Sequence record: PZ179882.1
DNA from: a phage
Reading direction: 5' to 3' (one strand)
Length of the DNA stretch: 64,000 nt
The position numbers were made by a program, and so were the translations under genes. The notes beneath the pieces were generated by a model. It was given only the letters and a program-made list of their open reading frames with translations. It made no database searches and was not told the DNA's origin. Shown in pieces: positions 8,177 through 11,966 of this stretch; within the stretch, counting starts at the first letter, position 1; every line of letters begins with the position of its first letter.

Positions 8177-8647
8177 TTAATCATGTTTCCACACCCCATC
8201 GGTATTTGACCAAAGTCGCTGATTATCTGATCCTCGCCACAGCTTTTTGGTCGGAAGATTTTTCTCATACTTCCCATCAATAATAACATCAACATATTTA
8301 AGCATTTCTAGTTGTTTAATATCTTCAAATTTATATCCTGTCCACAACCAAATGCTTTTATTGGGATAAAGATTTTTTACTGTTTGAACAATGCAATGAA
8401 CAACATCTCGGTTATCAGGATAGAGAGGGTCTCCTCCAGTTATAGTTAATCCTTCTATATAATCATTATTCAAACATTCAATTAATTGTTCTAGTGTTTC
8501 ACCAGTGAATGGAACGCCATTTCTAGCGTTCCATGTTGATTTATTATAACACCCTTCACATTTATGCAAACAACCTGTAACGAAAAGAACGACCCTGCAT
8601 CCAGGGCCATTCACAAAATCGCAAGGATAAAATCTATCATAATTCAT
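8177..8647 (-). CDS. nrdG: Anaerobic ribonucleotide reductase activating enzyme
   Basis: 156 aa; radical-SAM cysteine cluster CLHKCEGC; matches T4 NrdG. Confidence 0.9.
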   Translation of the reverse strand: MNYDRFYPCDFVNGPGCRVVLFVTGCLHKCEGCYNKSTWNARNGVPFTGETLEQLIECLNNDYIEGLTITGGDPLYPDNRDVVHCIVQTVKNLYPNKSIWLWTGYKFEDIKQLEMLKYVDVIIDGKYEKNLPTKKLWRGSDNQRLWSNTDGVWKHD

Positions 8648-10461
8648 TGGTGTTTAACCCTATGCATGATTTCTTTATTTTTTCCAAGATTAAATCCGCG
8701 CTCGTTCGGATTTCCCAAATAGCCACATGTTCTTCTTATTGTGTTCATCTTTTTAGGATCAGTTTCTCCACAAATAGAACAAACAAATCCGTTTTCAGTA
8801 GGAGTCATTTCATGGGTACTTCCACACGTAAAACATTTATCTACTGGCATATTAACACCAAAATAATCTAAATGTTGTGCAGCATAATCCCATACAGCCT
8901 CAAGACCTTTTAGATTATTTTTCATATCAGGAAGTTCAACATAAGAAATGTGACCGCCTGTCGCGATGAAATGATATGGGGCTTCGCGAGAAATCTTTTC
9001 AAACGGAGTAATATTTTCTTCTACTGAAACATGGAAACTGTTAGTGTACCAGCCTTTATCGGTAACATCTTTTACACTTCCATATTTTTCGGTATCAAGT
9101 TTACAGAAGCGATAGCACAGGTTTTCAGCAGGAGTAGAATACAAGCTAAAAGCAAAACCAGTTCTTTCAGTCCACTGCTTAAGATGAGCATTCATTTTAG
9201 TTAAAATTTCTTGTCCAATATCACGACCGACAAGAATATTCAATTCGTGAATACCAATGTATCCTAAGGACACTGAACTTCTACCGTTTTTAAATAACTC
9301 AATTATATCGTCATCGGGTTTAAGACGAACCCCGAATGCACCTTCTTGATAAAGAATAGGAGCAACAGTAGCTTTAACTCCTTTTAAGGAACTAATTCTA
9401 CACATCAATGCTTCAAAACATAAATTCATTCGCTCATTGAACAATTCAGTAAATTTCTGTTCATTGAACTGTGTTCCAATATAAGAATCTAACGCAATAC
9501 GAGGAAGATTCAGTGTTACAACACCAAGATTATTACGTCCATCAAGAATTTCATTACCAGTCGAATCTTTCCATACGCCCAAGAAACTACGGCAACCCAT
9601 TGGAGAAACAGGAATAGATGAACCAGTGATAGCTTTATTGTTCTTAGCTGAAATAATATCAGGATACATTCTTTTGCTTGCACACTCTAGAGCAAGCTGC
9701 TTAATATCATAGTTCGGATCGTCTTTATAAAGATTAACACCCTCTTCAACGAACATAACAAGTTTAGGGAAAATAGGAGTTATCCCATCACGACCGAGAC
9801 CTTTAATACGATTTTTCAGAATTGCTTTCTGAATCATTCGTTCAGTCCAGTCAGTTCCAGTACCAAATGTAATTGTTACAAAAGGCGTTTGTCCATTTGA
9901 ACTAAAGAGAGTATTTACTTCATATTCATAAGCTTGGAACGCATCGTATACGTCTTTTTCTGTTTTAGATTGGGCATAATTCAATGCATCAGCGATTTGC
10001 CATTTTTCTGCGTCCTCAATATGTTTTGCATAGGTGCGTTTAACATAAGGAGAAAGTACTTTGTCTACATTCGCAAAAGTCGTTCCGCCGTATTGATGGG
10101 AAGCAACTTGCGCAGTAATTTGCGCCATAATTGCAGTAGCAACGCCAATTGATTTAGGAGTTTCAATCTGTGCATTACCAAGCTTAAATCCGTTTTCAAG
10201 CATTCCTTTTAAATCTACTAAACAGCAATTAGTAAATGGAAGAGCAGGGGAATAATCAATATCGTGGAAATGGATAATTCCGCTTTCATGCGCTTTCATA
10301 ATAAAAGACGGGACCATATTTTTGGCAATGTGTTTAGACACAATACCAGCCATAAGGTCCCGTTGAGTTGGAAAAACACGAGAATCTTTATTAGCATTCT
10401 CGTTTAAAAGGTCTTTATTAGTTTTATGAATCAATCCTTCAATTTCTTTTTCAATTGTCAT
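8644..10461 (-). CDS. nrdD: Anaerobic ribonucleoside-triphosphate reductase (class III), uninterrupted
   Basis: 605 aa continuous ORF; C-terminal glycyl-radical and Zn-ribbon region (CFTCGSTHEM...CSICG...RTCGYLG) recognised as T4 NrdD. Confidence 0.95.
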   Translation of the reverse strand: MTIEKEIEGLIHKTNKDLLNENANKDSRVFPTQRDLMAGIVSKHIAKNMVPSFIMKAHESGIIHFHDIDYSPALPFTNCCLVDLKGMLENGFKLGNAQIETPKSIGVATAIMAQITAQVASHQYGGTTFANVDKVLSPYVKRTYAKHIEDAEKWQIADALNYAQSKTEKDVYDAFQAYEYEVNTLFSSNGQTPFVTITFGTGTDWTERMIQKAILKNRIKGLGRDGITPIFPKLVMFVEEGVNLYKDDPNYDIKQLALECASKRMYPDIISAKNNKAITGSSIPVSPMGCRSFLGVWKDSTGNEILDGRNNLGVVTLNLPRIALDSYIGTQFNEQKFTELFNERMNLCFEALMCRISSLKGVKATVAPILYQEGAFGVRLKPDDDIIELFKNGRSSVSLGYIGIHELNILVGRDIGQEILTKMNAHLKQWTERTGFAFSLYSTPAENLCYRFCKLDTEKYGSVKDVTDKGWYTNSFHVSVEENITPFEKISREAPYHFIATGGHISYVELPDMKNNLKGLEAVWDYAAQHLDYFGVNMPVDKCFTCGSTHEMTPTENGFVCSICGETDPKKMNTIRRTCGYLGNPNERGFNLGKNKEIMHRVKHQ

Positions 10462-10931
10462 TTTAAACTCTTTCTAAGCTGCTTCTTAAATGAAGCTATT
10501 AACTGTGTTTTAGTATCAGATTCATTATATTCAAATCCTCTTTGAAGCATCTCGGCCATCATTTCCTCTTTTCCTAAACGAGAAAATTCCTTTGATTTAT
10601 CTCCAACAAAGTTAGGGTGAATATTATTTTGGGTGTAATCGGATTTTAAATAAGTAAGTAAATTTTCTAACCATTCAAGATAATCAACACCTTGTCCCTT
10701 TAAGCCAGAACGATTAAATTTATGCTTCATTTGACCTTCTGCGGCATTGCAGAGATTACAAAGCAATCCACGTATCTTTCCTGCTTTTGGTCCATTTAAT
10801 TCATGGTCATGATCAAGATGATTAGCTTGAACATCAGGATTTAGTTCTCGTTGGCAAATTAAGCATTTACCGTTTTGTGCATTATAAAATTTTTGTTTTT
10901 CTTCTTTGTATAATTTGCCAGTCAATAACAT
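10458..10931 (-). CDS. 49: Endonuclease VII (Holliday-junction resolvase)
   Basis: 157 aa; MLLTGKLYKEEKQKFY...CLICQ...HLDHDHELNGPKAGK matches T4 gp49. Confidence 0.92.
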   Translation of the reverse strand: MLLTGKLYKEEKQKFYNAQNGKCLICQRELNPDVQANHLDHDHELNGPKAGKIRGLLCNLCNAAEGQMKHKFNRSGLKGQGVDYLEWLENLLTYLKSDYTQNNIHPNFVGDKSKEFSRLGKEEMMAEMLQRGFEYNESDTKTQLIASFKKQLRKSLK

Positions 10932-10973
10932 AATAAAACCCTTACCTTAAATAGATAAGGGTATTTATTATTT

Positions 10974-11150
10974 TTAAGTATTGTAAAACATTCGATGCAA
11001 TCGTTTATACTGTCGAATCATCTTTTTAGTAGGACGAGAATAGGTTCCTACGCAAGTGGTCATATGAGGGTCCGTAGAATGTCCTTTAATAAAAAGTTTC
11101 CAAACCTTACCGCCATTTAACTTTTCAGTATAAACCAATTCGGTTTTCAT
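10974..11150 (-). CDS. Small protein (58 aa) sharing its C-terminal 14 residues with the downstream pin-like protein
   Basis: Found by eye (below 60-aa track cutoff): ATG at 11150, TAA at 10974; translation MKTELVYTEKLNGG...RQYKRLHRMFYNT. Confidence 0.4.
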   Translation of the reverse strand: MKTELVYTEKLNGGKVWKLFIKGHSTDPHMTTCVGTYSRPTKKMIRQYKRLHRMFYNT

Positions 11151-11233
11151 TAAAATGTCCTGTCAGAAAAAGAATTTTGAGTTTTTTTCAAGTATTATAA
11201 AACATTTGATGCAATCGCTTATATTGCCGAATC
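10976..11233. repeat. Diverged direct repeat (~44 bp) at the 3-prime ends of two adjacent genes
   Basis: 10976..11019 and 11190..11233 align with about 5 mismatches; both encode ...RQYKRLH(R/Q)MFYNT plus stop. Confidence 0.6.
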
Positions 11234-11673
11234 TTTTGGTCAGAAAAAGAAATTTGAGTTTCAAGCCATTCAATGTACTCTGCGGCAGCTTGCATCAGGT
11301 TACCTTCATAGCCATCGTTATTTTCTTGCGCAGCTAATTTAGCTAATGCGTATGAAATACGTTCACCTTGAAAAGAGGCTTCAGGCTTCTGAACATCTTG
11401 GCTAGTTCTCTCTACAACTTCTTCAATTTCGCCATTTTCGACTGATTCAGTATTCCACAAGCACCAATACGTAATTGGCTTATCGTAGATGTTAATAATC
11501 TTTCCGTCGGAAAGTTCAATTTCAATAATTCCAGTATCAGGTTCTATATCATCTTCACATTCTTTTGCAAGTTCACGAACTTTAAAGACAGTACCTGCAC
11601 TAAGTTCCGGCCAGTAATTACACAGCCCTATATCAACACGATTAATTCTAAACCACTTATCTACTGTAATCAT
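11188..11673 (-). CDS. pin: Probable protease inhibitor Pin
   Basis: ORF track 11188..11691 begins at TTG; ATG at 11673 gives 161 aa, the length of T4 Pin; position between 49 and nrdC; sequence itself not recalled. Confidence 0.5.
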   Translation of the reverse strand: MITVDKWFRINRVDIGLCNYWPELSAGTVFKVRELAKECEDDIEPDTGIIEIELSDGKIINIYDKPITYWCLWNTESVENGEIEEVVERTSQDVQKPEASFQGERISYALAKLAAQENNDGYEGNLMQAAAEYIEWLETQISFSDQKIRQYKRLHQMFYNT

Positions 11674-11795
11674 GTCCCATCTCCATATCAATTAAGTCAT
11701 TTATCGTTGGTTCATTATATACTGTTTCTTCATCAGTGTAAACCGGTTCTTCCGGCTCTGGCTCTACAGTTTCCCATCTAGCCGCCCACCAAGGT

Positions 11796-11966
11796 TTAAC
11801 CCCGAAGCTTATTAAGTTCTTCATAATCAATCCAGGATTCTAATCCTGATGGCAAATCAGATTCAATTTCCCAAAGAAGCTCTTCAATTTTCTGAAGACG
11901 ATCTAGTTCTTCGGCTGGAATAGTAACCATTGACGGAGCTCGTGATACATTAATATCGTAAATCAT
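11796..11966 (-). CDS. Small acidic protein (56 aa)
   Basis: Found by eye: ATG at 11966 five nt after upstream stop, TAA at 11796. Confidence 0.4.
   Translation of the reverse strand: MIYDINVSRAPSMVTIPAEELDRLQKIEELLWEIESDLPSGLESWIDYEELNKLRG

Follow-up and report, generated by a model that had tools for sequence, protein, structure and literature searches.

A chimeric pin gene beside a member of the family that probably supplied its tail in a T4-like phage

Introduction

PinA of phage T4 (UniProt P07068) is the textbook phage inhibitor of the Lon protease of Escherichia coli (Skorupski et al., 1988; Hilliard et al., 1998; both as cited in PMC8835725) and is still in use as a reagent (PMC8835725). 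The experimental proof cited there for inhibition of the ATPase and proteolytic activities of Lon concerns T4 PinA only. Here we analyze the pin locus in a stretch of phage DNA of 64,000 nucleotides (nt) (sequence record PZ179882.1; hereafter the window), in which pin lies next to a small gene of the DUF7279 family encoding 58 amino acids (aa). The two genes share their 3' ends. Comparison with related phages indicated that the common tail belongs to DUF7279, and that a deletion made the 161-aa Pin of T4, T2 and T6 a chimera, with residues 1-146 from Pin and the remainder from DUF7279 residues 44-58.

Deletions that fuse neighboring genes are familiar in T4, in which the rII deletion r1589 joins rIIA to rIIB, and may be compared with 'Rosetta stone' fusions in general. 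Small genes of T4-type phages are also shuffled in modules. In promoter early stem-loop (PeSL) shuffling, ORFans with a repeat of ~50 bp on each side are cut out as mini-circles, which then insert again (Arbiol et al., 2010, PMC2839356; Comeau et al., 2014, PMC4122927).

Results

The window belongs to a T4-like phage of the genus Tequatrovirus, similar to RB32 and pSe_SNUABM_01. A 1.5-kb query round the locus matches Salmonella phage pSe_SNUABM_01 at 99.1% identity and RB32 at 98%. The genes on the minus strand lie in the order nrdD, gene 49, the 58-aa open reading frame (ORF), pin and small ORFs up to nrdC (Table 1). The proteins encoded by the 58-aa ORF and pin end ...IRQYKRLHRMFYNT and ...IRQYKRLHQMFYNT, with the common form ...IRQYKRLH(R/Q)MFYNT. 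A preliminary description of this DNA had reported the common ending and a diverged direct repeat beneath it. Both were confirmed. A repeat search located a 52-nt direct repeat at 10968-11019 and 11182-11233 (87% identity, spacing 214), for which an ungapped scan gave 45/52 matches. In 60 dinucleotide-preserving shuffles of 10850-11750, the mean was 29.4 matches and the maximum 32. The repeat does continue past the stop codons, as had been described, but only for ~4-6 A/T-rich bases (TGAAAA.. versus TAAAAA.. on the gene strand).

A second direct repeat of 23 nt (11162-11184 and 11239-11261; 22/23 matches, spacing 77, shuffle maximum 19) had been missed in that description. One of its copies is located in the spacer between the genes, where it duplicates pin codons just upstream of the common tail. 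Nothing beyond the shortness of the repeat speaks for chance similarity, for a short peptide reached by convergence or for an artefact of assembly. Given the shuffle maxima, and the same structure in more than 100 independently sequenced genomes, we consider the probability of such an origin negligible.

On the gene strand, the interval reads pin...A-B(stop)-A'-X-B'(stop), in which B and B' are the copies of the 52-nt repeat and A and A' contain those of the 23-nt repeat. In letters, pin...A (AAACTCAAATTTCTTTTTCTGAC) and B (CAAAAG ATT CGG ... ACT TGA) are followed by AAAA, A' (AAACTCAAAATTCTTTTTCTGAC), AGGACATTTTA, X (beginning with ATG) and B' (AAG ATG ATT CGA ... ACT TAA). B carries CAA (Gln) where every DUF7279 copy carries CGA (Arg). 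Together with the 12 nt that follow it, A' reads ACT CAA AAT TCT TTT TCT GAC AGG ACA TTT TAA in the pin frame, or TQNSFSDRTF(stop); this whole stretch is the relic A' of Table 1. Its TAA overlaps the ATG of the 58-aa ORF, and it supplies an AGGA motif resembling a Shine-Dalgarno sequence. A simple tandem duplication would repeat the whole unit between copies head to tail, but the 214-nt period contains only 52 + 23 nt of repeated sequence. A stretch of 137 bp within it is unique and codes for the first 43 residues of DUF7279. The preliminary description had called the interval a partial tandem duplication or short-homology recombination product. We retain from this proposal a recombination product, with tails that are homologous by descent, and find that it contains a non-homologous joint; a simple tandem duplication is not retained.

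Profile searches indicated which gene owns the tail. The 58-aa ORF scores 62.7 bits against Pfam PF23945 (cut-off 24.5) and matches phrog_3272 end to end (residues 1-58, E 3.4e-34). Its residues 7-56 match the full 53-position PF23945 profile (1-53/53), and the tail therefore lies inside the family domain. The window pin was assigned to PF10465 (Inhibitor_I24; 157.9 bits versus a cut-off of 27, E 1.8e-46) through residues 4-141 only. Residues 1-146 of its product are covered by phrog_2167 and form the Pin family body. Residues 147-161 match positions 44-58 of phrog_3272 and form the captured DUF7279 tail.

In Tequatrovirus, Mosigvirus and Dhakavirus, the small DUF7279 gene is located between pin and gene 49. 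The orthologs at this position in Mosigvirus and Dhakavirus show 45-84% identity and retain KKMIRQ(Y/F)KR(L/F)HR.FY. In Mosigvirus phiC120 and p000y, a 137-aa pin ending ...EYLERRLS(stop) is followed by a 59-aa DUF7279 ending ...K(R/K)MIRQYKRFHRDFYN(I/V)Y. In Dhakavirus VR5 and JS10, pin ends ...FSD(K/E)AF(stop) and DUF7279 ends ...KKMIRQFKRLHRSFYN(I)/..ST.... The DUF7279 ATG overlaps the pin stop codon (TAATG or TGATG) in Tequatrovirus and Dhakavirus, and a 9-nt gap separates the two genes in Mosigvirus. A C-terminal basic motif, (R/K)PTK..(I/L)R..KR.HR.FY, is common to DUF7279 orthologs and paralogs and is found in the window ORF. Residues R39, P40, T41, K42, I45, R46, K49, R50, H52, R53 and F55 are invariant in the DUF7279 alignment. 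The aligned Pin homologs of 148, 137 and 142-144 aa lack the tail. Those of 142-144 aa (P0039-P0041), with 41-43% identity to the window Pin, end ...EFSSKSF, ...EFNAKSF and ...AFSDRGF.

Paralogs of DUF7279 reveal the direction of transfer. Two of them flank pin in Mosigvirus (L007 606-776 and 1201-1380; L009 likewise), and the upstream one, of 56 aa, ends ...RPTKRQLRKAKRSHRNFYREY. In Salmonella phage S16, two paralogs (L026/L027 3001-3165 and 3530-3697) flank a 116-aa gene without a Pfam hit, at the position that pin occupies elsewhere. Their tails are ...LTPRLIRRYKRINRLFNF and ...KPTKAQIRNRKKWARTYW.... Since the same motif is found in paralogs upstream of the Mosigvirus pin and in S16, it cannot come from a pin 3' end. 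We consider these tails decisive among the sequences compared, in that they indicate a tail native to DUF7279 and captured by pin. DUF7279 includes the C-terminal basic helix ...KKMIRQYKRLHRMFYNT as an integral part, and the 58-aa ORF did not originate as a by-product of pin. Relic A' matches the C-terminus of the 148-aa pin (SFSDRAF(stop), with the TAATG overlap) in JEP6, NBG2, PP01 and Sf22, and also those of Dhakavirus and remoter pins. The outgroup endings (FSxxxF(stop)) imply that A' preserves the true ancestral pin C-terminus.

The copying direction implied in the preliminary description, from pin to the 58-aa ORF, is therefore reversed by the distant Pins that lack the tail and the DUF7279 orthologs and paralogs that carry it. 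Under that proposal a partial tandem duplication of the pin 3' end made the ORF, which would be a young by-product with a copied tail. Head-to-tail repeats with periods of 214 and 77 nt, and the absence of the ORF from T4, T2 and T6, agree with such an origin. However, the ORF exceeds the Pfam DUF7279 threshold with its tail within the profile, and its orthologs occupy the same position in two other genera. Paralogs away from any pin 3' end have the same tail, and a 137-bp stretch separating the repeats has no second copy in the interval. We judge the duplication to be very improbable.

In an AlphaFold model, the 58-aa protein forms a three-stranded sheet (residues 2-9, 15-22 and 31-37) and a single helix (42-56), which is the tail. 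An independently predicted S16 homolog superposes on this model, helix included, with template modeling (TM) scores of 0.75-0.80 and a root-mean-square deviation of 2.0 Å. The S16 homolog is also the sole structural match in BFVD. A fold search of the PDB found nothing significant (best E 0.27), and neither search gave a functional assignment. A profile search of 1.84 billion representatives returned 9 hits, all of them T4-like small ORFs or spurious repeats in long proteins, and the family is therefore narrow. Among the sampled Tequatrovirus DUF7279 copies, the tail residues are invariant except for one M-to-A change in UFV05. Their tails differ by six synonymous codon changes and one non-synonymous change, and in pin tails non-synonymous changes equal or exceed synonymous ones. 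The numbers are small, and consistent with constraint that has been relaxed or altered in the captured tail.

Four alleles of the locus were found in Tequatrovirus. Type 1 (T4, T2, T6 and slur02) has the 161-aa fused pin, with A-B only, followed by gene 49. Type 2 (JEP6, NBG2, PP01, UFV05 and KNP5) has a 148-aa pin ending ...SFSDRAF(stop), the TAA of which overlaps the ATG of the tailed 58-aa ORF (A'-X-B'). Type 3 (the window, pSe_SNUABM_01, RB32, SHFML-26, F1, AV120 and ES12) has A-B-A'-X-B'. In type 4 (Sf22 and Pu-Krd-SF5), pin encodes 148 aa and the 58-aa ORF was lost by a 174-bp deletion at an AAT microhomology (...GCGTTTTAAT/ACTTGA). The abundance of types 1 to 4 among ~507 Tequatrovirus records is estimated at ~255, ~70, ~115 and ~70, respectively. 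A tblastn search with X found 326 phage records, 112 of them at 99% identity or more, in line with the type-3 estimate. An IMG/VR scan yielded only 6 loci and was excluded from counting. Alignment confirmed that X is absent from all four type-1 genomes. The comparison with T4, T2 and T6 proposed in the preliminary description thus found only a fused pin and no 58-aa ORF. Relatives without any repeat had been named there as grounds for refutation. Such relatives exist, but they represent allelic polymorphism and not chance similarity.

T4 and JEP6 differ by a single clean 137-bp block (GACCGA/GCATTTTAATG...AAAAAG/ATGATTC versus GACCGAATGATTC). Comparison across the genera shows the ancestral state to be a short pin of ~137-148 aa, ending ...WLExQ.xFSDxxF(stop), followed by the small DUF7279 gene. 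A 137-bp deletion in a T4-like ancestor would have taken out the pin stop codon and the first 43 DUF7279 codons, so that codons 44-58 of DUF7279 came to follow pin codon 146 in the same frame, giving the 161-aa Pin. All fused pins sampled, in type 1 as well as in B of type 3, have Gln for Arg (CAA for CGA) in the tail, which points to a single fusion event in Tequatrovirus.

Similar events were found outside Tequatrovirus. An independent Mosigvirus fusion (P0038; L028 2501-2926, from a contig of Logan SRR20302901) encodes a 141-aa Pin ending ...EYLERR/FHRDFYNVY (...EYLERRFHRDFYNVY), and resulted from a deletion between two ACGTTT motifs. In two ENA metagenome contigs (L029 2501-3076 and L030 1510-2085), a 1-nt deletion (TATTGATATG to TATGATATG) removes the stop codon of the upstream DUF7279 paralog. 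The resulting protein of 191 aa (P0037) has this paralog fused in frame to the N-terminus of Pin. The downstream DUF7279 gene is cleanly lost from the same contigs (...AAGTTAA/TAAATACCC). Counting the T4-type, Sf22-type and Mosigvirus-type cases, DUF7279 downstream of pin was lost at least four times. Its C-terminal helix appears to have been captured by pin at least twice.

The clean 137-bp difference between T4 and JEP6 fits an insertion as well as a deletion. Pin would then be 161 aa ancestrally, the T4 type would be the uninterrupted ancestor, and a 137-bp element X (the start codon and 43 codons) would have split its 3' end. However, all outgroup pins end at FSxxxF(stop) or earlier, exactly where the 'interrupted' form ends. 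The tail is the only helix in the DUF7279 fold model, and the S16 homolog has the same fold. Paralogs upstream of pin carry the tail, and the same gene was deleted independently in Sf22, L028 and L029. We judge an insertion to be very improbable as well, and favor deletion.

Two generations of the same locus lie next to each other in the window interval. A fused-pin genome would have regained an intact DUF7279 cassette, together with 35 nt of the donor pin 3' end, from a diverged donor of the ancestral type. The right-hand exchange would have been homologous, through the tail, the hairpin and gene 49. The hairpin (Table 1) is a right-hand homology anchor common to all alleles. The left-hand join would have been non-homologous, linking AAAA after the fused pin stop codon to AAACTC, 35 nt before the donor pin stop codon. 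The product, pin-A-B-stop / relic A' / X-B'-stop, would be the source of both the 52-nt and the 23-nt repeats. Once formed, the allele may spread through ordinary flanking homology. It could also collapse, by B x B' recombination to the T4 type (-214 bp) or by A x A' recombination to the ancestral type (-77 bp). We consider this whole account, from an ancestral pair through fusion to re-acquisition of the cassette, to be likely.

At the joint, the AAAA that follows the stop codon of the fused pin (TACTTGAAAA) meets AAACTC of the relic. The resulting run contains 7 A's in the window, 5 in F1 and 6 in pSe_SNUABM_01, SHFML-26, AV120 and ES12. This length polymorphism in otherwise near-identical genomes is consistent with replication slippage in non-coding DNA. 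Joining at a 7-bp CTTGAAA, present at both partner sites, was tested and is unsupported as it stands. It predicts 3 A's and a 73-bp period, versus the 5-7 A's and 75-77 bp observed.

Codon usage in the two copies is informative. Window B has CAA, AAG and TGA, as in fused and ancestral alleles elsewhere, and the adjacent B' has CAG, AAA and TAA. B was therefore not recently copied from B'. X-B' is identical in six of six type-3 genomes compared, and the nearest type-2 allele seen is ~93% identical to the window cassette. The relic has AGG or AAG where the short pins of Tequatrovirus use CGA. Re-acquisition from a diverged donor would be the simplest account of these differences, rather than copying in situ. 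We also considered that AGGA in the relic evolved as a compensatory Shine-Dalgarno sequence after translational coupling was lost. We dropped this idea on finding AGGGCA or AAGGCA in other window-type genomes and AAGGCG in the functional pin end of Dhakavirus VR5. The donor allele is therefore the more likely source of the codon difference.

Several points weigh against fusion followed by re-acquisition. The order of the steps behind the window allele is inferred. Among the hit-list samples read, there is no ancestral-type genome with the exact cassette allele, and the joint contains no convincing microhomology. The junction variants DRMIQQ (T4) and DQKIRQ (slur02 and the window) differ at 4/12 nt, and a second independent T4-type fusion is possible. 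The allele counts are extrapolated from evenly spaced hit-list samples and do not represent a census. The DUF7279 model is only moderate in confidence, with a best predicted local distance difference test (pLDDT) score of 81.6 and scores of 52-61 for the other four models. The Pin model is weak (mean pLDDT 65.9, below 50 for tail residues 145-158), too weak to tell whether the tail packs against the body.

Another order of events, from the ancestral type to the window type to the T4 type, is less parsimonious. The window type would arise directly from the ancestral type by a complex template-switch duplication, and the T4 type from it by a 214-bp B x B' deletion. Such a recombination would yield the exact T4-type structure. 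In addition, matched pin tail subtypes occur with and without the cassette, F1 and slur02 both ending QKIRQYKRLNQMFYNT. However, this order needs two coordinated non-homologous switches, where one 137-bp deletion is sufficient. T4-type alleles carry the TGA and CAA/AAG of B, not the TAA, CAG and AAA of B', and the B x B' crossover would therefore need to fall in the last 4 nt. The cassette does not vary among the genomes compared and differs from other alleles by ~7%, suggesting recent import. We find the window type unlikely as an intermediate, and prefer its formation by re-acquisition after the fusion.

The features of the interval and the neighboring genes are listed in Table 1. The window Pin is 94% identical to the cluster representative P0012, the Pin body of which is that of T4. 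From this level of identity (~94%), we infer that the window pin product is a Lon inhibitor. The pin frame stays open as far as a TTG at 11691. At 11714-11742 (-), inside a 49.1-like ORF and ~40 nt upstream of the pin ATG, there is a near-consensus sigma-70 promoter-like site (TTTACA-17-TATAAT, 11/12); the NBG2 annotation has a promoter at the equivalent spot.

Table 1. Coordinates of the features at the pin locus in the window
Feature	Position	Strand	Description
nrdD	8644-10461	-	uninterrupted 605-aa ORF
gene 49 / endonuclease VII	10458-10931	-	
hairpin and T-run	10938-10962	-	directly upstream of the gene 49 start codon; terminator-like, 10 pairs, -18.2 kcal/mol, z -3.9
repeat copy B'	10968-11019	-	native DUF7279 tail codons, TAA stop (10974-10976), 6 flanking bases
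DUF7279 gene	10974-11150	-	58 aa; Pfam PF23945, phrog_3272
segment X	11020-11150	-	DUF7279 sequence outside the repeats, present once: start codon and 43 codons
relic A'	11150-11184	-	non-coding remnant of the ancestral short pin 3' end
A-run	11182-11188	-	7 A's on the gene strand; contains the presumed non-homologous joint between 11185 and 11184
repeat copy B	11182-11233	-	last 14-15 pin codons (11191-11235), TGA stop (11188-11190), few flanking A's
pin (PinA, predicted inhibitor of host Lon protease)	11188-11673	-	161 aa from ATG, T4-type long form
repeat copy A	11239-11261	-	pin codons ...ETQISFSD, just upstream of the fusion point

The gene 49 hairpin, a 10-bp stem followed by TTTATTATG, is conserved in Tequatrovirus, Mosigvirus and Dhakavirus and present in all loci compared. 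The likely Shine-Dalgarno sequence of gene 49 (AAGG/TAAGGG) is located within its stem. It probably corresponds to the hairpin known for translational and terminator control of gene 49 (Barth et al., 1988). Upstream of pin, a 56-aa ORF at 11796-11966 (-) matches phrog_3402, annotated 'antitoxin from a toxin-antitoxin system'. Between 49.1 and nrdC, the window has this 56-aa ORF and a 71-aa ORF in place of 49.2 and 49.3 of T4, and T2 has both sets. The 49.1-nrdC interval is another indel-polymorphic stretch. The T4 GT7 annotation gives nrdD as a two-piece join (intron), versus the uninterrupted ORF in the window. In pSe_SNUABM_01, the closest relative, a homing endonuclease gene adjoins a shortened nrdD ORF (L001 6-1562).

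Discussion

Our analysis brings a new point to a well-known protein, namely that the reference PinA carries a helix captured from a neighbor it has lost. In the literature retrieved, we found no discussion of the last 15 PinA residues as foreign to the Pin family or of a chimeric C-terminus. If the tail was captured, truncation at 146-148 would be the natural definition of the real inhibitor, and Pins of 137-148 aa would be the norm rather than truncated oddities. DUF7279, of which a literature search found no mention, gains a first functional lead in its tight linkage to pin. With four alleles, at least four independent deletions and one probable re-acquisition, the locus is a compact and datable illustration of the loss, fusion and regain of small accessory genes in T4-type genomes, for which microhomology and short repeats in coding sequence are used.

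Repeated joining of DUF7279 and Pin might signal a joint function, following the Rosetta stone argument. This is suggested by the tail captures in Tequatrovirus and Mosigvirus, the N-terminal whole-gene fusion in two metagenome contigs, the stop-start overlap, and the paralogs on both sides of the Mosigvirus pin. If it held, the basic helix would be a functional module, for example a handle that binds Lon or nucleic acid. T4 PinA would have internalized the helix on losing its partner, and the reference protein would be a two-component system in one chain. At present we think a joint function rather doubtful.

Among described systems, T4 PinA is the closest to the window pin, which is a 161-aa ortholog with the same long C-terminus as the protein used in biochemistry. 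It differs in that the donor gene of the tail still adjoins pin in the window. The fusion itself resembles r1589, in that one deletion takes away a stop codon together with the beginning of the following gene, leaving the two reading frames joined. Unlike such fusions, Pin keeps only the 15-residue helix of the downstream gene. In addition, the Pin fusion is a common natural allele, found in about half of the Tequatrovirus records sampled, and is the reference sequence.

As in PeSL shuffling, closely related T4-type genomes differ by the gain or loss of a small ORF that has direct repeats of ~50 bp on either side. In formal terms, the window allele corresponds to a 214-bp circle integrated into the fused pin tail, which B x B' recombination would excise. 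However, the repeats of a PeSL cassette are made up of an early promoter and a stem-loop in intergenic DNA. The window repeats are the coding 3' ends of two genes and were born of gene fusion, and one joint is non-homologous. No promoter-like or terminator-like site was found within either copy of the 52-nt repeat. Since the repeats are coding and contain no promoter or stem-loop, this is not a PeSL cassette. Insertion driven by a homing endonuclease does not describe the locus either, as no endonuclease ORF or domain is found between gene 49 and pin in the window. In relatives, homing endonuclease genes are located in or beside nrdD, not in the pin-gene 49 interval.

The 58-aa ORF is a full-length member of Pfam DUF7279 and phrog_3272. 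To what is known of these families our analysis adds synteny with pin: the gene follows pin in three genera, and two paralogs are placed round the pin position in Mosigvirus and S16. Taken together, the locus is a case of ordinary accessory-gene turnover and phage genome mosaicism, and involves no new kind of mechanism.

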